Source: a candidate division Kazan bacterium GW2011_GWA1_50_15 (GTDB lineage Bacteria > Patescibacteriota > Kazan-3B-28). Taken from it: DNA of 64,000 bases. The stretch's first letter is position 1; every line of letters begins with the position of its first letter. Made by a program: the position numbers and the translations under genes. The notes under the pieces were generated by a model. It had not been told where the DNA came from. It saw only the letters and a list, made by a program, of their open reading frames with translations, and did not search any database. Below, piece by piece: positions 2,507 to 53,352 of this stretch. Where the stretch lies: assembly GCA_001029795.1 (NCBI GenBank), contig CP011216.1:279128-343127 (forward strand), given 5' to 3'.

Positions 2507-3340
2507 CTATCCCAAGTCGGCGCGAGCTAAATCACAGAGCTTGGCCACGCCCGCTAGTAAGGCAAACTCCTGTGGGAAGCAGTCCACGTTGTGGGGGCCT
2601 AGGCAATACCCGTCGTTCGGGTCAACGGGGCCGCCGCCGCCTAGCTCGCAGGCGTTCCCGGGACAACGAAGGTAGACACCGAAGTACTGGCCGAAAGAGC
2701 AGCAACATTCATGGCCTAGCAACTCAAGTTTGCCACCTACCATCCAGCGATACATACTGGCGATGGCCTGCTCGACAATGGGAACCCGCTGGGTTTGGGG
2801 TTGGGCAGCGATCCATCTGGCCAGAGTGGGAGTGATGCTAATGCCCACCCCCAATTCGTTGTAGCCCCCCGTGTAACAGATGTCTTCCACTACGACCAGC
2901 TGTCTGTGGCGACCCTTGGGCTTGGGGATGTTGTCATCGCCCCCTATCAGCCAAAGAGAATTACACAGCCAATTGAGAGTCGTGGCATGAGCCCGTCCCC
3001 GCTCTTTCTCCTGATGCCCGGGTAAGTAAAACCGGCACACCCAGCCCTGCTCGTCATGTTGATAGGAGAAACAGGTATTCTGAAAACCGAATGCCCCGTC
3101 GGTCTCCTTGGGTTCCGTTAACGAGGGTAGCGTAAACTGTTCGGCTATCCTTATCATCTTTTCCCGGTAGAGGTTAGCTGGTGGCTCTGCCTTTTTCTCG
3201 CGCAAGGAACTAACTCGCTTTGTCAGACTACCTACCACTGCCGGCCATATGGTGGGATGAACTGTGACGGCAATAACATTCGGTTCTTCAAAAGACAAAC
3301 CATACCATTCGGGCCTGTCCCAGGCACTGTTCGCGTGCAT
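2507..3340 (-). CDS. Cys-rich hypothetical protein, possibly metal-binding
   Basis: 277 aa; the C-terminal third has HECCCSFG...RCPGNACELGGGGP...YCLGPHNVDC. A GGAGGTG SD is upstream. No family recognised. Confidence 0.55.
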   Translation of the reverse strand: MHANSAWDRPEWYGLSFEEPNVIAVTVHPTIWPAVVGSLTKRVSSLREKKAEPPANLYREKMIRIAEQFTLPSLTEPKETDGAFGFQNTCFSYQHDEQGWVCRFYLPGHQEKERGRAHATTLNWLCNSLWLIGGDDNIPKPKGRHRQLVVVEDICYTGGYNELGVGISITPTLARWIAAQPQTQRVPIVEQAIASMYRWMVGGKLELLGHECCCSFGQYFGVYLRCPGNACELGGGGPVDPNDGYCLGPHNVDCFPQEFALLAGVAKLCDLARADLG

Positions 3341-3409
3341 CTATACACCTCCATACAAATTTTGAAGGGACAGCTTGCCCCCTCCAAGACACCGACATTG
3401 TACCACGGG

Positions 3410-4135
3410 CTACAGACCAGCCAGACGGATAACCAAGAACAGAACGCCGGCACCAAGCAAAGTCATCAGCGTGGTCAAAAACTTCGGATGAGCGTGGTGA
3501 CTCTCGGGGATAAGATCGCTCGCCCCGATGTAGAGAAAGAAGCCGGCAAAGACGGCTAAGATGACACCGAGCAGATGTTCGGGTAGAGCGAAGAACAAAG
3601 TCGATGTGATACCCGCTACCGGCGCGACGGCATCCACCATTAACCACTTGAAAGCCATGCGACTATCTTTGGAGTGCTTCAGTAAAACATTGACCGTGTT
3701 GATGCCATCGGAGAAGTCATGGGTCAAGACCGCCACAGCGACTATCAGCCCGACTGCGGACGAGACCTGAAAGCCGACACCGATAGCCACACCGTCTAAG
3801 AAACTATGCACGGCCAGCGTGCTGCCGCCTAAAATCCCACGTCGAGGAGCCGTATGGCCGTGTTCGTCGCTGTCATGATGATGCAATAACACCCACCGGT
3901 CCAAAACTAAGTAGGTCAAAAACCCTGTGGCGATGAAGGCAGCGATAGCGGAGGTAGAGTAAAACTGCTGACCGAGATCCACGGCCTCGGGGATAAGGTC
4001 AAAGAATGCCACCCCGATAACAGCCCCGGCCGAAAACCCCAAGATGAGATGGAGTTTATCCTTGAACCGCAGTGCCAACCAGCCACCCAGCAGGGTAGCG
4101 GCAAATGCGGCGATGGCGATCAAGATTAACATCAT
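3410..4135 (-). CDS. zupT: ZIP family divalent metal transporter (ZupT-like)
   Basis: 241 aa with a His-rich loop HHHDSDEHGH and HSFLDGVAIG / HDFSDG motifs typical of ZIP/ZupT. Confidence 0.8.
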   Translation of the reverse strand: MMLILIAIAAFAATLLGGWLALRFKDKLHLILGFSAGAVIGVAFFDLIPEAVDLGQQFYSTSAIAAFIATGFLTYLVLDRWVLLHHHDSDEHGHTAPRRGILGGSTLAVHSFLDGVAIGVGFQVSSAVGLIVAVAVLTHDFSDGINTVNVLLKHSKDSRMAFKWLMVDAVAPVAGITSTLFFALPEHLLGVILAVFAGFFLYIGASDLIPESHHAHPKFLTTLMTLLGAGVLFLVIRLAGL

Positions 4136-4158: not shown

Positions 4159-5460
4159 TTATTCGTACCGCAGAGCGTCGATAGGGTTTTTCCGGGCGGC
4201 TCTAACGGCTGGCGAGACACCGGCCAAGAATGCTACCGCGATAATGGCGGCAATAATGCCGGCTATTAGCGTGATCGGGAAAGCCAGTAGGTCGAGCCCG
4301 GGGAAATCCTTCAGAAAACCGTTTGAGGCAATACGATTAATTATCATGGCCGAACCGATGGCCGCGCCGGTACCCAACACACTCCCCCAGAATCCCAAGA
4401 GAGCCGCTTCGGTGCTGAACAGTAAAAATATCCGCGACCCGCTCATGCCCATAGATTTCATCAAGCCGATCTCCTTGGTCCGCTCCTGCACCGCCATTAG
4501 AAGAGTGTTGATGATGCCAAAGGCAGCGGCCAAAAGCGCGATCAGACCGAACATATTGAACACTACCACAATGCCATCCACCACCTGCCTGACGATACCG
4601 ATACGGTCCGACACGGTCTGAGGTAGATAACCCTTATTGGTCAGCCGTTGCTTTAAAGCCGTCAAGTCGTCCGAACTAATGTTTGGGTCAATATGAGCGC
4701 TGGCCGCTGCGTACCGTTTGGCTAGATTCTCTGGTAACCCCTCAGTTTGTAGATTAAATAGTCCTTGGGCAGCGGCTGTGTTAAGGCCCACTCCAGTGGC
4801 CAAAGAGATAAGAGTTTTTTGTTGGACCCCAGCTACCTCCGCATAGACTTCAACTACCTCACCAGTTGGTTTGGTAATCCCGATCATGACCCGGCCACCT
4901 ACTGCCGCATCGTTGTCCGCAAACCCTAGTGAGTTCACAAAACTGACTGGCAGGACCACTTGATAATCCTTGGCGGAGTGGTCGGGCTGACTGCCTGACA
5001 GTAGGTCGAGTTTGGCGCCGCGCGGATAGAGCGAGGCCTGCAGTTGGTATTTGTGATTATTGGGCCCTTCAATATAGTCCGGGGCCACCGAGAAATACGG
5101 CTGGACCTCGGCCAGGTCCGGGTCCTCTTCAAGGATAGCCAGATCATTAGGGGTAAGCATATTAAAAGCCACTCCCGGACCGGCGACGGTGCTGGCCTTC
5201 TGTTTGGACGGGTTGTAGCGTTTGGGCGCTTCGCCAGAGGAGAAACTTTGGCTCTCCTGTTGGGCTTGGATGATAAGCAGGTCTTTGGGTCCGACATTGC
5301 CCAGCTGGCGGTCGATGTAGTCAGAGATACCGGCGCCAACCCCGTTAGTCAAAGTCAGGGTAAAGGTGCCGATAAAGATGGCCAGGATAGTCAGGGCAGT
5401 TCGGGTCTTGTTCCGACCGAGATTGCCGGCGGCCGTTAAAAAGATATCAAATAGTTTCAT
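4159..5460 (-). CDS. ABC transporter permease, FtsX/MacB-like (N-terminal TM, large periplasmic domain, C-terminal 3 TM)
   Basis: 433 aa; the N-terminus LGRNKTRTALTILAIFIGTFTLTLT and the C-terminal FtsX-type TM bundle. It overlaps the upstream ATPase gene by 4 nt. Confidence 0.8.
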   Translation of the reverse strand: MKLFDIFLTAAGNLGRNKTRTALTILAIFIGTFTLTLTNGVGAGISDYIDRQLGNVGPKDLLIIQAQQESQSFSSGEAPKRYNPSKQKASTVAGPGVAFNMLTPNDLAILEEDPDLAEVQPYFSVAPDYIEGPNNHKYQLQASLYPRGAKLDLLSGSQPDHSAKDYQVVLPVSFVNSLGFADNDAAVGGRVMIGITKPTGEVVEVYAEVAGVQQKTLISLATGVGLNTAAAQGLFNLQTEGLPENLAKRYAAASAHIDPNISSDDLTALKQRLTNKGYLPQTVSDRIGIVRQVVDGIVVVFNMFGLIALLAAAFGIINTLLMAVQERTKEIGLMKSMGMSGSRIFLLFSTEAALLGFWGSVLGTGAAIGSAMIINRIASNGFLKDFPGLDLLAFPITLIAGIIAAIIAVAFLAGVSPAVRAARKNPIDALRYE

Positions 5461-6894: not shown

Positions 6895-7650
6895 TTATAC
6901 TTTCTTAACCTGCAGGAAGTCCAGTTCTACTGGGGTTTCACGGCCGAAGATAGAGACCAGCACTTTGATCTTGCCGCGCTCTTCATCCACCTCGGAAACC
7001 GTGCCGTCGTAGTTCTTGAAGGGACCGTCGTTGATGTGAACCAAGTCTCCCACCCGCAGGTCGATCTTGTACTTGGGCTCCTCCACCGCCATCCGTTTGA
7101 GGATGGTCTTAATCTCGGTATCGGAGACGGGCACCGGCACTGTACCGGAACCGATGAAGCCGGTAACATTCGGGGTATTGCGGACGACATACCAGCTATC
7201 TTCCGTCACGTTCATATTCACCAGCACATAGCCGGGAAAGATCTTTTTCTCCACGGTCTTGCGCTTGCCAGCCCGGATCTCGATCTGGTTCTCTTTGGGG
7301 ACTAGCACGTCAAAAATCTTATCCTGCATATCCAGGGAAGCGATACGCTGTTTTAAGCTCTCGGCCACCGCATCTTCGTAGCCGGAGTAGGTGTGCAGAA
7401 CATACCATTGGCCCGGCCATTTGGTGCTGGCAGTGGAGGCGTCCACCGCCGGAGCGATGGTCGGCTCGGGAGCGACCTCCTCCTCGTCCTTTTCTAAGGT
7501 ATCTCCTCCGTTCGTCGGAGAATCATTATCAGCGATCTCTTCTGGTCCCGGGGCTGGCGCCGCTTCCTCCATTGGTACTACATCATCCCCTATGACAGGG
7601 GTCGCTGTCTCGTCTGCGGGCTGGATGGGTTCTAACTGATCGTCGTTCAT
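6895..7650 (-). CDS. nusG: Transcription antiterminator NusG with a ~75-aa acidic N-terminal extension
   Basis: The NGN domain ([11 protein letters not shown]) and KOW ([18 protein letters not shown]) are recognisable. The N-terminal 75 aa are D/E/P-rich low complexity. Confidence 0.9.
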
Positions 7651-17283: not shown

Positions 17284-17844
17284 CTAAATCCTTTCACCTT
17301 TGCCTGGAACGTTAGCTTGAAATGGGAAACCTAATGCGCGGAGCAGATGTCGGGTCTGGTCTTGGTTTTTGGCGGTAGTAACTATTGATATCTCTAGACT
17401 AAATACCTTGTCGATATTCTCAAAAACGATCTCTGGGAAGACGACGTGTTCGGTCAACCCAAGAGTGTAGCCACCCCGACCATCAAATCCCGCCGACGGA
17501 TTTAAGCCCTGGAAATCTCTTACTCGCGGCAGAGCGACCTGAACTAATTTATCCAGAAAGTCATGCATTCTGCCCCCGCGCAAGGTAATCTTGACCCCGA
17601 CCGGATCGCCTTCGCGGACTTTGAATCCAGCAATTGACTGCTTAGCTTTGGTGATCACGGGCAGCTGACCAGTAATCCGCTTTAGTTCGTCGGCGATGGC
17701 CCCGATCGCTTTGGTGTCACCGGCTAGCTTCCCAACCCCAACATTCACTACCACCTTCATGATCTTCGGAACAGCCGAAACCGACTTGAGTCCAAGCTCA
17801 GTTTTTAGAGTGGGCAGTAGATTTTGGTAGTTACTTTTTGACAT
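17284..17844 (-). CDS. rplE: 50S ribosomal protein L5 (start placed at MSKSNYQ to clear rplX)
   Basis: The track ORF runs to 17877. The internal Met at 17844 gives a canonical L5 N-terminus ([15 protein letters not shown]) without overlapping rplX. Confidence 0.85.
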
Positions 17845-18154
17845 CTTCGATGATAGCCTTACAAACCCTACAGACACGCTTTTTAACCTCCCCTATCCGA
17901 TGATACCCGACGCGGGTTGGGTGATTGCAGCTGGGGCAGATCAACATAACGCTCTCGACCGGCATCGCAGCCACCACTTCAACGATCCCGCCGGGCTGAC
18001 GATTCTGCCCGCCGCGACGCTGATGCCGCTTATGGATGTTCACACCCTCAACCTTCACCTTGCCTAACTGGTGGTCGGCTGACGCCACATGCCCGCTCTT
18101 GCCGCGGTCACGTCCTTTAATGACTAATACTTTGTCGCCTTTTTTAACCTTCAT
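17831..18154 (-). CDS. rplX: 50S ribosomal protein L24 with a C-terminal CxxC...CxxC zinc-ribbon extension
   Basis: KOW core MKVKKGDKVLVIKGRDRGKSG, then the extension LICPSCNHPTRVGYHRIGEVKKRVCRVCKAI. Confidence 0.9.
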   Translation of the reverse strand: MKVKKGDKVLVIKGRDRGKSGHVASADHQLGKVKVEGVNIHKRHQRRGGQNRQPGGIVEVVAAMPVESVMLICPSCNHPTRVGYHRIGEVKKRVCRVCKAIIEDVKK

Positions 18155-18165
18155 TACAATACCTC

Positions 18166-18270
18166 TGGTGAATTATCTCGAGAGGGCAACCAAGAGTTTC
18201 CCTCTCGACGCTCGTCGGCGAAGCCAAGTTCGTCAGCTGACGAACTAAGCTCACTGCTCTCCCTTCCTCG
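18166..18270. repeat. Copy C of a ~95-nt hairpin-rich structured repeat (inverted relative to copies A/B), in the rplX-rplN spacer
   Basis: ctcgagagggcaaccaagagtttccctctcgacgctcgtcggcgaagccaag...aagctcactgctctccc aligns with the reverse complement of 28020-28120 and 52990-53095, with compensatory changes. Confidence 0.7.
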
Positions 18271-18309: not shown

Positions 18310-18678
18310 TTATAAAACTTCAGGCGCTAGTGACACTATCTTCATAAAGTTGCGGTCGCGCAGTTCGCGAGCGACGGGACCAAATACCCGAGTGCCGCGG
18401 GGTTGCTTGCTAGCATCAACTATCACAATGGCGTTCTCATCGAACCGGATCCAACTGCCGTCGGGCCGGTGGGTGGCTCTGACCGTTCTTACCACCACGC
18501 CTTTGATTATTTCTTTCTTCTTCACTACACCGGTCGGTGAGGCCACTTTAACGGCGCACACCACAATGTCACCCAAACCGGCGTACCGGCGGCGGCTGCC
18601 GCCGAGCACCTTAATGCATCTAACCGCTTTGGCGCCAGTGTTGTCCGCTACTCTTAAATTAGTGCCAGCTTGAATCAT
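18310..18678 (-). CDS. rplN: 50S ribosomal protein L14
   Basis: [17 protein letters not shown]. Confidence 0.9.
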
Positions 18679-23468: not shown

Positions 23469-23558
23469 ACTGAAACAATTACTTCTGGCCTCATTAAGGG
23501 GAGGTTCCAGAGGTTAATTAGTAACTAAATTGGTAGGTAATCCCTCGGTAAGCTCGGG

Positions 23559-25353: not shown

Positions 25354-25785
25354 TCAGTCATCTCGCAAGTCGTTCAGGTATTTCTGGCTGAAGTGTTCTG
25401 GGTGCGCCTTAGCGTGCCAGGACTCTCCCATCTTCCAGACGACCAAACACGTTAGGCCGGTCAGGGTCATGCCCAGGAGTTGATATGGCCAATCTGCCCA
25501 GGGTACCGGGGCAAAAATGAGGGGGACGGCTGTACCCCCTCCCAGCCGTTCGAGTTCTGAGGGAGTGAGAGTATTGCTGGCCCATGCGATCAGAAGCCAC
25601 AGCCCCCAGCCCGAGAACATTAGCTTCCAGGCCGCGCTATTCCAGAACCCGGCCAGGGTCATAGAGCAGAAAGCCAGGATGATGTAGGTCCCGATGATCG
25701 AGACCCATACCCACGGGATAACCCTAAAAGCCAGAATTGCCCAAACGATCAGGCCAGCGCCGACTAAAATCCGCTTAAGGTTCAA
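25354..25785 (-). CDS. Integral membrane protein (4 TM), unknown function, between fusA and tuf
   Basis: 143-aa hydrophobic ORF with no recognisable family. Confidence 0.55.
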   Translation of the reverse strand: MNLKRILVGAGLIVWAILAFRVIPWVWVSIIGTYIILAFCSMTLAGFWNSAAWKLMFSGWGLWLLIAWASNTLTPSELERLGGGTAVPLIFAPVPWADWPYQLLGMTLTGLTCLVVWKMGESWHAKAHPEHFSQKYLNDLRDD

Positions 25786-25934: not shown

Positions 25935-28016
25935 CTACTTTCCACCCATCCGTTTGGCGATCAGCTCGATCTGAATGTTGGCCGGCACCTTCTCGTACTG
26001 GGCGAACTCCATCGTATAGGAAGCCCGGCCCTGCGACATTGACCGCAAGTTAGTGGCGTAACCAAACATCTCCCCTAACGGCACATAGGCCCGAATAACT
26101 TTGGCGTTGCCCCGCTCGGTCATCCCTTCGATGCGGCCGCGCTTAGAGTTCAAGTCCCCCATCACATCACCGGCAAAGTCTTCAGGAGTAACCACTTCCA
26201 CGCGCATAATGGGTTCCAGTAAGGCCGGGTTGCCTTTTTTGACACCCTCCTGCAGAGCCATGCTGCCCGCAATTTGGAAGGCCATCTCGTTGGAGTCAAC
26301 TTCATGGAACGAACCGTCGAACAAGGTCGCTGAGATATCCACTACCGGATAGCCAGCAATAACCCCCCGGCTCATAGCCGCTTCGATGCCTTTCTGGACT
26401 GGCGCAATGAACTCTTTGGGGATAGTCCCGCCAACGATCTTATTAACGAACTCAAATCCGCCATCTAGTTTGGGCGCGAAGCGGACTACCGCGTGGCCGT
26501 ACTGGCCCCGGCCGCCAGTCTGTTTGATGTATTTGGCTTCGGCGACGGCTTCTTGCGTGATAGTTTCGCGGTAGGCCACCTGGGGTTTGCCGATGTTGGC
26601 CTCTACCTTAAACTCGCGCTTCATCCGGTCGACAATAATATCCAGATGCAGTTCGCCCATCCCCTCAATGATGGTTTGGCTGCTCTCGGCATCGGTGTGG
26701 ACTTTAAAAGTTGGGTCCTCTTCGGCTAGCTTGGCCAGAGCCAGACCCATCTTTTCTTGATCGGCTTTTGATTTCGGCTCCACCGCAATAGAAATAACTG
26801 GTTCGGGGAACTCGATCGATTCCAAGATGACCGGATGAGCTTCGTCACACAGGGTATCACCCGTCGTCACGTTCTTTAGCCCCACAATAGCACCAATTTC
26901 TCCAGAGAAAATTTCGTCAACCTCCTCGCGATGGTTGCTGTGCATCCGAAGGATCCGGCTTACCCGTTCTTTAGTGTCCTTGCTTGCGTTCAGCACATAA
27001 GACCCAGATCTCAATTTGCCGGAGTAAACCCTGAAGTAGATCAGTTTACCGACAAAGGGGTCAGTGGCGATCTTGAAGGCTAACGCGGCGAACGGCTCTT
27101 CGTCGCTGGCGTGGCGCACCAATTTGTCCTCGGTGCCAGGTTTCAGTCCTTCAACCGGCGGGATATCTAAGGGGCTAGGCAGATAGCTAACCACTGCGTC
27201 CAATAGTTTCTGCACGCCCTTGTTCTTGAGGGCTGAACCGCACAATACCGGCACAAATTTGTTGGCGATGACCGCCACGCGAATAGCCCGCCTGATCTCG
27301 TCTTCGGTTAGGGCTTGGTCAGCTAAAAACTTTTCCAAAAGCTTGTCTTCGGTCTCGGCCACTTTTTCTAGGAGCTGATGGCGGTACTCTTTGGCCTGGG
27401 CCTGCATATCCTCCGGGATGTCTGTTTCGGTGATCTCTTTCCCCATATCATCTTCGAAGATATAAGCCCGTTCCGTGATAAGATCGACAACGCCCTTGAA
27501 GGTCTCGGCCGCACCGATAGGCAACTGTACCGCGACGGCGTTAGCGCCCAGACGATCGATGATAGTTTTAAAACAAAAATAAAAGTCGGCGCCCATCCGG
27601 TCCATCTTATTAACAAAACAGATACGGGGGACATGATACTTCTCGGCTTGGCGCCAAACGGTCTCGCTCTGCGGCTCCACGCCGGCTACGCCGTCGAAGA
27701 CCACGACACCGCCATCCAAAACACGGAGACTGCGCTCCACCTCAACAGTGAAGTCCACATGTCCAGGAGTATCGATGATGTTGATGCGGGTATCGTCCCA
27801 AAAACAAGTGGTGGCAGCGCTCGTTATGGTAATGCCCCGCTCGCGTTCCTGCTCCATCCAGTCCATTACCGCTTCACCTTCGTGCACTTCGCCTATCTTG
27901 TAGGTCTTACCCGTGTAGTACAAAATCCGCTCGGTAACGGTGGTCTTGCCAGCGTCGATATGAGCGATAATGCCGATGTTCCTGGTTTTGTCGAGCGAAT
28001 ACTGCCGTTCAGTCAT
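25935..28016 (-). CDS. fusA: Elongation factor G
   Basis: 693 aa; [21 protein letters not shown]; domains II-V. Confidence 0.95.
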
Positions 28017-28019
28017 AGT

Positions 28020-28120
28020 GTTTTAATTAGGTGAAAAGGAGAGTAGCGAGCTTGGTTTTGGCTTGCCAAAACTCGGCTTCGCCGACGAACGTCGAGAGGG
28101 AACCCACTGGTGCCCTCTCG
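28020..28120. repeat. Copy A of the ~95-nt hairpin-rich structured repeat, in the rpsG-fusA spacer
   Basis: aggagagtagcgagcttg-[gttttgg ctt ccaaaac]-[cggc ttc gccg]-acgaacgtcgagaggg-loop-ccctctcgagatgttaaaa. It has the same architecture as 52990-53095 and is the inverse of 18166-18270. Confidence 0.7.
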
Positions 28121-28125
28121 AGATG

Positions 28126-28599
28126 TTAAAACCGAGCGAAGTGGGCGAAGGCCTGGTTGGCCTCGGCCATCCGATGTGTTTCTTCTTTTTTCTTCACAGC
28201 GTCACCGGTGTTATTAAAAGCGTCGATAAACTCCTGAGCTAATTTTTCAGCCATTGGTTTGCCTTTTTTCTTGCGTGCCACACTCACCAGCCACTGGAAC
28301 GCCAGTGCGACCCGACGCTCACCAGAGACCTCGGTCGGGATCTGAAGGTTAGAACCGCCCATCCGGCGGGATTTTAGCTGGACTGAGGGAGACACATTGC
28401 GCACCACCGCTTCAAACACTTCAACCGGGTCCTTACCGGTTTTCTGAGCAGCCGTCTGTAGAGCTGAATACACCGTTCTCTCGGCAACGGTTTTCTTGCC
28501 ATTCAACATGATCTTATTAATAAACCGACCGATCATAACATGGCCGTATTTCCGGTCCGGTTCGTGGGTTTTGCGTAAAGTGATCTTTTTTCTGGGCAT
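28126..28599 (-). CDS. rpsG: 30S ribosomal protein S7
   Basis: MPRKKITLRKTHEPDRKYGH... ; S7 fold. Confidence 0.9.
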   Translation of the reverse strand: MPRKKITLRKTHEPDRKYGHVMIGRFINKIMLNGKKTVAERTVYSALQTAAQKTGKDPVEVFEAVVRNVSPSVQLKSRRMGGSNLQIPTEVSGERRVALAFQWLVSVARKKKGKPMAEKLAQEFIDAFNNTGDAVKKKEETHRMAEANQAFAHFARF

Positions 28600-39804: not shown

Positions 39805-39892
39805 GGTGGGCAGGGTGGGATTCGAACCCACAAGCCGTATTACCGGCAAAGGATTTTAAGTCCTTCGTGTATACCGTTCCACCACCTGCCCT
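39805..39892 (-). tRNA. tRNA-Leu (anticodon TAA), class II
   Basis: Manual fold: acceptor GGGCAGG/CCUGCCC, 3-bp D stem, anticodon loop CUUAAAA, long variable arm, T-loop UUCGAAU, CCA encoded. Confidence 0.85.
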
Positions 39893-40050
39893 GATGGGCG
39901 AGAGAGGAAGTGTATCCCCACTGGTGTGGGGCCCCGCCATTCGCCGCTTTACGGTAAACCCAACATATTAATTATACCCTGCTCCGCAGGGAGCGACCCC
40001 ATGCGCGCACCTTAGCTTGCGCCAGCTTCTCCCCAACCATCACCGGCCAT

Positions 40051-40075
40051 AAGAAAAAATCGGACAGGCCCGATT
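40051..40075 (-). terminator. Rho-independent terminator after tRNA-Leu(CAG)
   Basis: The minus-strand RNA reads aaucgg-gccugu-ccgauu followed by uuuuucuu. Confidence 0.55.
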
Positions 40076-40084
40076 CTTTCCTTT

Positions 40085-40170
40085 TGGTGGGCGAGAGAGG
40101 AATCGAACCTCCATGAGATTGCTCTCACTACGACCTGAACGTAGCGCGTCTACCGTTCCGCCACTCGCCC
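40085..40170 (-). tRNA. tRNA-Leu (anticodon CAG), class II
   Basis: Acceptor GGGCGAG/CUCGCCC, anticodon loop UUCAGGU, long variable arm, T-loop UUCGAUU, CCA encoded. Confidence 0.85.
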
Positions 40171-40244
40171 TGGAGGCCCGAGGCGGAATCAAACCGCCGT
40201 ACGGGGTTTTGCAGACCCCTGCCTAATCACTCGGCCATCGGGCC
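40171..40244 (-). tRNA. tRNA-Cys (anticodon GCA), U73 discriminator; directly abuts tRNA-Leu(CAG)
   Basis: Acceptor GGCCCGA/UCGGGCC, anticodon loop CUGCAAA, unusual T-loop UUUGAUU, CCA encoded. Confidence 0.7.
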
Positions 40245-40422
40245 CTCGTCAGGATGGACTCGACTTGACGCTATCCCGCCATCGTCTGCACACGGCGGGA
40301 TGCTTTTGGGTCTCGTCATCCTTCCTCTCAATCCGCCAACTGGCGGACACAAATAGTCGCTTGCACTCCTTAGTCCGCGAATTTGGGTTTGAGATCTAAC
40401 AAATTATTAATCCATTTCGGTC

Positions 40423-40497
40423 TGGAGCGGGTGAGGAGAGTCGAACTCCCGTCTCTACCTTGGCAAGGTAATATAATAACCGTTATACGACACCCGC
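40423..40497 (-). tRNA. tRNA-Gly (anticodon GCC)
   Basis: Acceptor GCGGGUG/CACCCGC, U73, anticodon loop UUGCCAA, T-loop UUCGACU, CCA encoded. Confidence 0.8.
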
Positions 40498-40499
40498 AT

Positions 40500-40574
40500 T
40501 GGTGCCGAGGGACAGAATCGGACTGTCAACACCACGCTCTTCAGGCGCGTGCTCTACCATTGAGCTACCTCGGC
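40500..40574 (-). tRNA. tRNA-Phe (anticodon GAA)
   Basis: Acceptor GCCGAGG/CCUCGGC, D-arm GCUCAAUGGUAGAGC, anticodon loop CUGAAGA, T-loop UCCGAUU, CCA encoded. Confidence 0.8.
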
Positions 40575-40605
40575 CCTACATCAACCATAATATAGTAAGT
40601 TGCTG

Positions 40606-40681
40606 TGGTGGACGATGCAGGATTCGAACCTGCGACACCTCGGATGTAAACCGAGTGCTCTAACCACTGAGCTAATCGTCC
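40606..40681 (-). tRNA. tRNA-Val (anticodon TAC)
   Basis: Acceptor GGACGAU/AUCGUCC, anticodon loop UUUACAU, T-loop UUCGAAU, CCA encoded. Confidence 0.85.
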
Positions 40682-40774
40682 AAATCTTATGCGGGGCAAT
40701 TCCCAACCGAGTGTTCCCCGCCCGACTGAACGATTCCAGTCGTTCGGACGGGTAACCAGCTGAGCTATGTGCCA
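40682..40774 (-). ncRNA. tRNA-like remnant: canonical tRNA 5' acceptor/D-arm (UGGCACAUAGCUCAGCUGGUUA) fused to two stable hairpins, with no T-arm or 3' acceptor
   Basis: It fills exactly the gap between tRNA-Leu(AAG) and tRNA-Val(TAC). The D-stem closing GAGC is replaced by a 12-bp hairpin (ccgacugaacga..ucguucggacgg) and a 6-bp GC hairpin (gcgggg..ccccgc). Confidence 0.4.
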
Positions 40775-40861
40775 TGGTGGACGAGAGAGGACTCGAACCT
40801 CCACGGGTTTTACCCCACAGCGCCCTTAACGCTGCGCGTATACCAATTTCGCCACTCGTCC
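40775..40861 (-). tRNA. tRNA-Leu with the unusual anticodon AAG (A34), class II
   Basis: Acceptor GGACGAG/CUCGUCC, 3-bp D stem, anticodon stem CAGCG/CGCUG with loop UUAAGGG (U33 then AAG, G37), long variable arm, T-loop UUCGAGU, CCA encoded. Confidence 0.7.
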
Positions 40862-52813: not shown

Positions 52814-53352
52814 CTGCTCTTTGCCAGTGTGCGATTGCCTCTCCCCAGTTTTGGGGAAGGGAGGAAAGTCCGGACACCACCCTGGAACAGAAAAGTCGCT
52901 AACGGCGACCCCTCGATGTATTTCGGGGAGGGAAAGTGTCACAGAGACAATACTAAACTTTCTTGAGAGGCATCTTATGGTTTTCTCTTAGCAGGGAAGG
53001 AGAGCAGCGAGCTTGTCCTAACTCTGTCAGGATGGGCTTTTGCCCACGAGTGTCGAGAGGAAACCGTAGGTTGCCTCTCGAGATTGTTAAAAGGTGAAAA
53101 GCGGTAGGGTGTTGAAATGTTGGAAAGCGGGCCAATCCCGCCAACCGGCCTCCAAGCTACCTACCGGGCTCCGTCGCGAGACGGATGTTCTGGTAAACCC
53201 TTTTCGGTGCAAGTTGGGCTGGACCGTTCATATCAATTGGTTTGTTCCGGGCAAGGTATGAAGGGGCCCCAACGCTTGATCCTGTCAGCAATGGCAGGGC
53301 TAGATAGATAATCGCTAAAACAGAATCCGGCTTACAGCTGGCAAAGAGCATT
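52814..53352 (+). ncRNA. rnpB: RNase P RNA (bacterial type A-like) with ~150 nt of extra sequence in the specificity domain
   Basis: P4 5' strand GGAGGAAAGUCCGG (52850-52870) and P4 3' strand ACAGAAUCCGGCUUA (53320-53335). P1 gcucuuugccag/cuggcaaagagc closes the molecule. A GGUGAAAAGCGGUAGGG block follows the repeat. The track ORFs across it look spurious. Confidence 0.8.
52990..53095. repeat. Copy B of the ~95-nt hairpin-rich structured repeat, embedded inside rnpB
   Basis: aggagagcagcgagcttg-[tcct..agga]-[gggc tttt gccc]-acgagtgtcgagagg-loop-cctctcgagattgttaaaa. It is collinear with 28020-28120 and carries paired (compensatory) substitutions in every stem. Confidence 0.7.

Follow-up and report, generated by a model that had tools for sequence, protein, structure and literature searches.

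Why should the same small folded sequence recur beside ribosomal protein genes and inside the gene for RNase P RNA of a single bacterium? The question is raised by a 64,000-nt stretch of the genome of a candidate division Kazan bacterium (Patescibacteria, or candidate phyla radiation, CPR) from groundwater, positions 279,128 to 343,127 of contig CP011216.1, which we call the window. An earlier inspection of the letters alone (the sequence-only reading) had pointed to three related copies of a ~95-nt hairpin-rich element there, in the rpsG-fusA spacer, within rnpB and between rplN and rplX. Our analysis confirms that observation and supports the interpretation drawn from it: the copies are members of a family, not described before, of interspersed structured elements of 65-100 nt in Patescibacteria. 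We give about even weight to our best reading of the family, that of a REP/BIME-like interspersed element that was mobile in origin, is now under constraint and passes through a folded single-strand intermediate.

We built a covariance model (CM) from 14 family members and searched the window with all filters off. Exactly three full copies were recovered, at 82.4-92.1 bits, all near the positions first given for them and in the contexts first named: copy A between rpsG and fusA, copy C between rplN and rplX, and copy B in the P12 hairpin of an rnpB gene that matches RF00010. The next matches in the window, at no more than 18 bits, are the third hairpin (hp3) in reverse reading. An hp3 pattern, GTCGAGAGG-N-CCTCTCGA, occurs three times in the window (0.00 expected), and the 5' block GGAGAGYAGYGAGCTT occurs exactly three times with zero mismatches. 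An additional 8 kb left of the window holds no CM match, and the 72 kb of this genome analysed contain 3 copies. Each copy consists of a purine tail, a helix (P1) around two hairpins (hp1 and hp2), and hp3, at the following window positions.

28030-28123, + strand: copy A, full element, rpsG-fusA spacer (CM 92.1 bits)
28033-28043, + strand: purine tail of copy A, GAAAAGGAGAG, then UAG at 28044-28046
28046-28050 with 28086-28090, + strand: helix P1 of copy A, tandem G.A in the middle, enclosing hp1 and hp2
28054-28072, + strand: hp1 of copy A
28074-28084, + strand: hp2 of copy A
28092-28121, + strand: hp3 of copy A, UCGAGAGGGAAC-CCACUGG-UGCCCUCUCGA
52991-53083, + strand: copy B, full element, inside helix P12 of rnpB by Rfam alignment (CM 82.4 bits)
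52994-53004, + strand: tail of copy B; P1 at 53007-53011 with 53047-53051
53015-53032, 53034-53045 and 53053-53081, + strand: hp1, hp2 and hp3 of copy B
18176-18270, - strand: copy C, full element, rplN-rplX spacer (CM 88.1 bits)
18268-18257, - strand: tail of copy C; P1 at 18254-18250 with 18214-18210
18246-18227, 18226-18216 and 18208-18178, - strand: hp1, hp2 and hp3 of copy C

We searched for relatives by scanning one genome per species with the hp3 pattern and applying nhmmer and the CM to the resulting loci. Names with an L number denote related loci or contigs; L248 is the Kazan bacterium RIFCSPHIGHO2_01_FULL_44_14 (Kazan 44_14), whose S7 protein is 82% identical to that of the window. 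A 322-kb contig from groundwater encodes proteins identical to those of the window. The search, of a kind that the sequence-only reading had proposed, found 24 full-length members outside the window, giving 27 distinct ones with its three. Full-length members score 82-98 bits, background no more than 23. The metagenome-assembled genomes (MAGs) that carry them are labelled Kazan, Saccharibacteria, Gottesmanbacteria, Levybacteria and unclassified Patescibacteria, plus two labelled otherwise. One of these two, labelled Gammaproteobacteria, encodes an S9 protein 73% identical to that of a Gottesmanbacteria MAG in the same gene order and, judged from its sequence, is CPR-like. The other, labelled Bacillota, contributes one copy (L054). 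Save for L054, nhmmer and CM matches are limited to CPR-labelled or demonstrably CPR-like MAGs. Both orientations are about equally common among the 27 copies, and nearly all are intergenic or in rnpB.

The impression that the element belongs to no known family held up. Rfam 15 at the gathering threshold, run on the window and 18 related loci, reports only rnpB and tRNAs; a permissive Rfam scan of copy C returns only chance miRNA and snoRNA matches (E at least 0.6). Likewise, BLAST against phages and plasmids and a pattern scan of the IMG/VR viral collection gave no match to the element, and no description of it was found in the literature searched.

We call the purine-tail strand the '+' strand of the element; read along it in the 5' to 3' direction, the consensus order is purine tail (~11 nt), GYAG, P1 with one or two variable hairpins, G, hp3 and GA. 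The tail reads UAAAGGAAGGAGAG, or GGGAGGGAGAG in Kazan-type copies, followed by C/U-A-G; hp3 is a sequence-conserved purine/pyrimidine hairpin, UCGAGAGGAAACC, loop, GGUUUCCUCUCGA. Both hp3 and the tail keep their sequence among MAGs whose labels place them in different CPR phyla. P1 is 5-6 bp long and takes the form of at least 10 different Watson-Crick helices among members (for example GUGCGG/CCGCAC, GGUGC/GCACC, GACCG/CGGUC and GGAUAG/CUAUCC), and in the window copies G-Y-G-A-R pairs with Y-G-A-R-C through central tandem G.A pairs. The interior of P1 varies by subfamily. Copies of the window, Kazan and Saccharibacteria type hold two hairpins in a three-way junction, copies of the Gottesmanbacteria type a single hairpin preceded by a GUUUUC bulge, and the minimal L054 copy a bare 5-bp hairpin. 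The sequence-only reading had described the variable hairpins and their compensatory differences correctly. Of the 5' scaffold that it drew, the block is indeed present three times, while P1 around the two variable hairpins had been overlooked. The trailing GUUAAAA that it counted as scaffold falls away: it is the rpsG stop codon region in A and native rnpB sequence in B, and is absent in C and in the relatives.

Covariation supports this fold in all of its helices, as the sequence-only reading had argued when it took the paired differences for structural selection. In an unfitted MAFFT alignment of the 14 two-hairpin copies, 83.6% of cells are paired and 19 of 29 pairs have changed on both sides; shuffled controls give 8.9 +/- 1.7 such pairs (0 of 500 reach the observed value) and slid controls 5-9. 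The alignment of all 27 copies, which is model-fitted and hence leans towards the model, has 91.1% of cells paired and 21 of 29 pairs changed on both sides, against 12.8 +/- 1.7 for shuffles (0 of 500 reach the observed value) and 4-12 for slid controls. Its covariation score is 0.315, compared with 0.114 for shuffles and 0.045-0.098 for slid controls.

Several other structures and products were considered and rejected. A K-turn in P1 was set aside, because the Kazan-type copies, for all their tandem G.A pairs, lack a 3-nt bulge, and in other subfamilies the same positions are Watson-Crick paired. A small hairpin proposed by RNAalifold, GAGC/GCUU, was dropped for P1, which covaries. Reading frames within the element differ among copies, with an early stop in B, which speaks against a small open reading frame (ORF), and Rfam gives no signal of a self-cleaving ribozyme, hammerhead or other. 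Near a tRNA gene in L075 (7470-7600), a short hairpin, GGGAGGAAACCGUAGGUUUCGUCCC, which shares its inner stem and loop with hp3, occurs twice about 80 nt apart and may be a related mini-element.

The purine tail bears a further relation to hp3. Read 3' to 5' from CAG, it equals the hp3 purine arm read 5' to 3' from GUC at 7-8 of 8 positions in 24 of 28 copies (7 of 8 in copy A). Five variants of the arm each come with a tail that mirrors them exactly (GAGAGGAA, GAGAGGGA, GAGAGGGG, GAGGAAAA and GAGGGAAA), and the arm GAGGGAGG is accompanied by the tail GAGGGUGG. Two otherwise near-identical copies, L040b and L084a, differ at one arm position and at its mirrored tail position. When tails were permuted among the 14 distinct combinations, the observed score was reached in 3 of 100,000 trials (p ~3e-5). 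Watson-Crick pairing of the tail with the pyrimidine (3') arm of hp3 was rejected as the cause of the similarity; it extends over 5 bp in most copies and is not conserved. Replication errors would be expected to yield inverted or direct repeats, not mirror repeats.

A mirror repeat of the purine strand beside its duplex is the sequence requirement for an intrastrand triplex (PMC4666352). In the terms of that study, the block order of the '+' strand is that of intrastrand triplex-forming (ITxF) class I (reverse-Hoogsteen, purine and pyrimidine block; purine motif, G.G-C and A.A-T), and the complementary strand is class III (pyrimidine motif, C+.G-C and U.A-U). The element has the three blocks of such sequences, namely purine strand, pyrimidine complement and mirrored third block, but 25-50 nt of structured sequence separates tail and hp3 where a loop of 1-6 nt is prescribed. 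The mirror covariation is the signature of an intrastrand triple helix and suggests an unusual three-stranded fold. P1 places the 3' end of the tail beside the 5' end of the arm, so that the tail can fold back antiparallel along hp3; it would then lie on the purine arm as a third strand, through G.G-C and A.A-U/T triples, and an intrastrand triplex would form. We put forward, as a tentative and somewhat doubtful possibility, that the fold is built on an eight-layer triplex (purine-motif, or pyrimidine-motif on the other strand), held in register by a three- or two-way junction and conserved in several CPR lineages. It would be either the structure that single-strand-specific machinery recognises, in a new form of transposition or recombination through single-stranded DNA, or a new module that governs RNA stability or RNA processing in the CPR translation apparatus. 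The mirror covariation makes the element a directly testable candidate for a biologically selected intrastrand triplex, and its experimental confirmation would be remarkable.

Intrastrand-triplex repeats of the BoxC/PIT type were reportedly described by Hoyne in 2000, and the mirror tail is closest to these. Like the BoxC, PIT and TM repeats (Holder 2015, PMC4666352), the element is a dispersed bacterial repeat in which a single strand holds three purine/pyrimidine blocks, with the class I and class III arrangement given above. The sequences are unrelated, however, and the third strand is set off by a 25-50-nt structured domain instead of a short loop. Evidence for the earlier bacterial triplex repeats is mainly composition and in vitro work, whereas support here comes from co-variation of mirrored positions. 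In triple-helix RNA stability elements (ENE with an A-rich tract, as in MALAT1 and PAN) the major groove of a hairpin likewise grips a single strand from farther away; these elements use U.A-U triples and a 3' A-rich tail, whereas the candidate triples here would be G.G-C and A.A-U, or C+.G-C and U.A-U on the other strand.

Which strand is selected to fold can be read from the base pairs. In P1 and hp3 the '+' strand has 15 G.U pairs against 6 A.C pairs, its minimum-free-energy structures contain about three times more G.U pairs than those of the '-' strand, and it gives the more stable fold in 20 of 27 copies. The bias holds in copies that lie antisense to operons too (A, L248a, L248b and L016). 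Since even these copies favour the '+' strand, the fold is not shaped by the host mRNA and is a property of the element's own strand, which fits a single-stranded DNA intermediate or element-specific transcription.

We next consider where the copies sit. The neighbouring genes of copies A and C, assigned from ORFs and Pfam, are these.

28126-28599, - strand: rpsG
25935-28016, - strand: fusA
18310-18678, - strand: rplN
17831-18154, - strand: rplX

Copy A is antisense to the rpsG-fusA operon, and its hp3 ends 2 nt from the rpsG stop codon (28126-28128); copies B and C are sense, with the rplX start codon 21 nt downstream of C. More generally, hp3 abuts the upstream stop codon in antisense copies and ends 5-21 nt before the next start codon in sense copies. 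The window and Kazan 44_14 carry the element at the rpsG-fusA site, which is empty in L251, L254, L255 and L256. L251 has an unrelated 70-nt sequence there, and L251, the window and Kazan 44_14 are about equidistant; in three further relatives the spacer is 9-71 nt, without the element. An extra copy lies between rpsJ and rplC in Kazan 44_14 only, the corresponding window spacer being empty (90 nt). In two relatives the rplN-rplX spacer, the site of copy C, measures 5 nt and 0 nt. Tail-to-tail inverted doublets occur in L040 (6918-6998, - strand, with 7041-7121, + strand) and L084 (4815-4895, - strand, with 4909-4992, + strand), each made of one main-type and one variant-type unit.

Some variants at these sites deserve mention on their own. 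In the rpsJ-rplC spacer of Kazan 44_14 (L248:15180-15330), ~70 nt are tandemly duplicated on the tail side of the element. The duplication holds a truncated second tail-like block (GGUGGAGUGGGGAGCAGGCGG) resembling the L013b/L256 subfamily, and the rpsG-fusA copy of Kazan 44_14 has a similar extension; both suggest nested or composite forms. The empty rpsG-fusA spacer of one relative (L251:2610-2679 and L252) has short repeat blocks, TAGAC/GTCTA, which fold into another hairpin (ACCAATAGAC…GTCTATTGGT). Contig L245 is identical to the window genome save for a ~270-bp patch (1637-1900) identical to Kazan 44_14, which runs from within the element to the conserved 5' part of fusA; this mosaic is either an assembly chimera or the product of recombination between lineages that occur together, the breakpoint then being in the element. 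The element is a marker for insertion and recombination history in these uncultured lineages.

Copy B lies within a structural RNA, and its insert is larger than a single unit.

52819-53350, + strand: rnpB (bacterial RNase P RNA, type A), host of copy B; RF00010, 173.6 bits, E 2.6e-54
52961-52989, + strand: 5' extension of copy B, UCUUGAGAGGCAUCUUAUGGUUUUCUCUU, a degenerate inverted copy of hp3

Compared with the reverse complement of hp3, the extension carries six C-to-U changes, which keep pairing as G.U. It pairs with 53053-53083 and closes the whole 123-nt P12 insert (52961-53083) through a ~29-bp helix that extends P12 (fold -69.6 kcal/mol, z -6.8). The rnpB of L259 holds the same composite, an inverted degenerate hp3 and a full unit, in sense orientation in the P19 region near its 3' end; an alignment of the two inserts with their flanks is 83% identical overall. 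Of the four related rnpB genes compared, the window gene carries the element in P12 and L259 carries it in the P19 region; of the other two, one shows a P12 reduced to the minimum and the other a P12 with a different extension. The composite may derive from a tail-to-tail doublet through internal deletion. CPR RNase P RNAs have been reported with unexplained large helix extensions and no dispersed element (PMC8172020); the element accounts for at least some of the extended helices that hamper detection of these RNAs. The L259 rnpB itself (3206-3937, - strand, 732 nt), from a Kazan relative, carries a second, unrelated insert of ~85 nt (…GGAACCAUCAAAUCUCAAAAUCCAAAUCCCAAACCGAUUAU…) twice, in a helix after P9/P10 and in P12, which is another repeat family colonising RNase P RNA.

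Precedents exist for repeats inside structural RNA genes. STRR repeats lie in P12 of rnpB in heterocystous cyanobacteria (Vioque 1997, as cited in PMC2858038); like the element, they are genome-wide repeats lodged in P12 with the gene not destroyed, but they are tandem heptamers and the element is a folded module. A Rickettsia palindromic element (RPE) lies inside the tmRNA gene of Rickettsia (PMC1458961). Like the element, RPEs are small repeats that form hairpins, belong to a reduced genome and insert into genes, a structural RNA gene among them; lineage and sequence differ, and RPEs are best known in-frame in protein genes whereas the element is intergenic or in rnpB, save for the doubtful L013b. 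In that case a diverged copy (L013:6833-6932, - strand) lies wholly within the 3' end of a 302-aa ORF on the opposite strand, with an N-terminus that looks SPFH/band-7-like by eye. The ORF stays open across the element, terminates where the element does, and is either an in-frame RPE-like insertion or a chance ORF extension.

The closest overall match is to the REP/BIME/REPIN repeats of proteobacteria, which are mobilised by RAYT proteins. Both are short extragenic structured repeats that occur in both orientations, fill spacers after stop codons and between cistrons, form single units or inverted doublets of two subtypes, have one recognised folded strand and persist at orthologous sites. REP sequences also carry GT[A/G]G before the hairpin, comparable to the G-Y-A-G of the element. 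A REP unit, however, is a single palindrome of 20-40 nt with a species-specific motif, whereas the element has 65-100 nt, three to four helices, a purine tail with a mirror relation and copies in rnpB. The multi-helix fold conserved across CPR-phylum labels and the mirror tail have no REP counterpart. Small mobile elements of the MITE type (Correia/NEMIS, RUP, ERIC) are likewise non-autonomous, under 200 bp, folded as RNA hairpins and co-transcribed with their neighbours, but they have terminal inverted repeats. The earlier suggestion of a MITE/REP-like module therefore stands in its REP/BIME-like part and fails for a MITE in the strict sense.

We infer the following for how the element moves and what it does. 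Its genomic behaviour would be like that of REP/BIME (REPIN) sequences, with the purine-tail strand as the strand selected to fold. Units, tail-to-tail doublets or their derivatives would have inserted into very short spacers, right beside stop or start codons, and, within rnpB, into the terminal loops of its peripheral helices. The fold would be self-contained, being tolerated at insertion sites and co-transcribed with its host. In its active form the element may be single-stranded DNA, with a trans-acting enzyme, RAYT/HUH-like or of another kind, to recognise it. Copies that have been retained may by now be of use to the host, for instance by punctuating operons of high expression with stable structures.

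A number of results weigh against this REP/BIME-like reading. The sample is small, at 27 copies. The element lacks terminal inverted repeats: its 5' end, UAAAGGAAGGAGAG, and the reverse complement of its 3' end, UCUCGAGAGG, share only GAGAG. No target-site duplication is seen when filled and empty sites are compared, although their flanks have diverged too far to be resolved base by base. Among the 30 ORFs of the window that were scanned there is no transposase, RAYT or partner protein, and no related insertion sequence was found among them or in the phage, plasmid and viral collections; the 72 kb of this genome analysed contain no RAYT gene (IS200/IS605-type Y1 transposase). No near-identical paralogues were seen in ~100 kb of Kazan sequence, and so no sign of recent bursts, which argues against recent activity. 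Purine-motif triplexes are reported to be unable to form in RNA (PMC4666352), so that a real triplex on the '+' strand would require DNA, or else the pyrimidine motif on the complementary strand. Furthermore, the core of the rpsG-fusA copy shared by the window and Kazan 44_14 is 83/86 identical (96.5%), and genes for ribosomal proteins or elongation factors neighbour 7 of the 17 loci recovered by the pattern scan, which took no account of context (between nusG and rplK, between rplK and rplA, upstream of rplN, and downstream of rplL, of tsf and, in two cases, of rpsI). Together, a near-invariant shared copy and enrichment beside translation genes favour a host-level function over selfish spread.

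These last two results lead to the strongest alternative, which we regard as somewhat unlikely: a host-functional RNA module, which either serves an abundant CPR protein as a platform for binding or acts as a signal for stabilisation or processing, recruited to transcripts of the translation apparatus and kept by purifying selection, with mobility incidental. The shared rpsG-fusA copy speaks for it. Four-fold degenerate sites in six flanking genes are 35-50% identical between the window and Kazan 44_14, which is saturation, and the rest of the spacer falls to 20-30% immediately outside the element. The junctions of the copy differ by a few bases between the two genomes. Either strong purifying selection acts at every base, or the same variant was recently inserted twice at the same spot. 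In the trmH-rpsI copies of two Gottesmanbacteria-like genomes the fold is kept via compensatory changes, which also suits such a module, as do the conserved hp3 and tail, the sense copies in two rnpB genes and the enrichment beside translation genes (binomial p of perhaps ~1e-4 to 1e-3, assuming that roughly fewer than 1/10 of spacers lie there by chance). On the other side, about half of the copies are antisense to co-directional flanking genes (A, L248a/b, L010, L016, L095 and L256) and still keep the G.U bias. If all copies functioned as RNA, the antisense ones would thus have to be transcribed, and no promoter for this was found; moreover, close relatives lack the element at the same sites.

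The REP/BIME-like reading and a host-functional module are not mutually exclusive. Diverged paralogues and a near-invariant shared copy contradict a purely selfish, recently active transposon, and mixed orientations, unrelated neighbours and rnpB sites contradict a gene-specific cis-regulator. No single simple model covers all the data. CPR genomes are very small and streamlined, and no description of their non-coding content was found in the literature searched. An element that several CPR lineages share, that is placed in their most highly expressed operons and in RNase P RNA, and that hardly varies despite saturation of silent sites is probably not junk.

We think it improbable that the copies are a multicopy family of small RNA genes, each with its own promoter and encoding a trans-acting RNA of ~90 nt. 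Strand bias independent of neighbour-gene orientation would agree with such genes, and A/T-rich stretches (TAAA, TATAAAT) often precede the tail, but no sigma-70-like promoter lies upstream of A or C in the orientation of the element, although canonical promoters and terminators are obvious elsewhere in these genomes. Nor is hp3 an intrinsic terminator; no U tract follows it, though canonical terminators are nearby. Moreover, copies lie flush with coding sequences and within rnpB helices.

Still less probable is a cis-regulatory leader or attenuator of ribosomal protein operons, such as an autoregulatory ribosomal-protein site. The sequence-only reading had left room for a regulatory or processing motif, and a gene-specific leader is disfavoured by the two orientations, the many unrelated loci and the rnpB site. 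Sense copies do precede rplX, rplN, rplK and rplA by 5-21 nt, but in other ribosomal protein spacers the element is antisense. Copies also neighbour folD, ftsH, dprA/topA and ABC transporter genes, and the same ribosomal protein spacers lack the element in close relatives. A fixed sense orientation before one gene class, as expected of a leader, was not found, and mixed orientations and contexts already largely refute this explanation. Finally, chance resemblance via low-complexity CTCTCGAG/GAGAG strings, which might be raised since short blocks alone are unspecific (all 120 loci of a two-block metagenome scan with GAGAGYAG-N-GTCGAGAGG were chance matches), is refuted by the full-length CM scores and by covariation in five helices.

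Further observations concern single loci. The minimal copy L054:1585-1660 (- strand) lies upstream of rplN, and the preceding ORF, presumably rpsQ, apparently ends at the UAG of its GAGAG-UAG, so that the purine tail would be coding there. In the rpsJ-rplC spacer of the window (23469-23558, - strand) lies a conserved hairpin with the loop CUUAAUG (…CCUCCCCUUAAUGAGG…AGAAG), ~20 nt upstream of rplC. This hairpin is common to the window, L248, L254 and L256, has no Rfam match and may be an undescribed ribosomal protein leader. Between fusA and tuf, the window encodes a 143-aa ORF (25354-25785, - strand) without a Pfam match, which is preceded by a canonical promoter of its own (TTGAC…TATAAT) and flanked by terminators; its position is conserved in Kazan relatives (125-143 aa). 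Seven tRNA genes are clustered at 39807-40861 (- strand), immediately upstream of an SBP_bac_5 gene.

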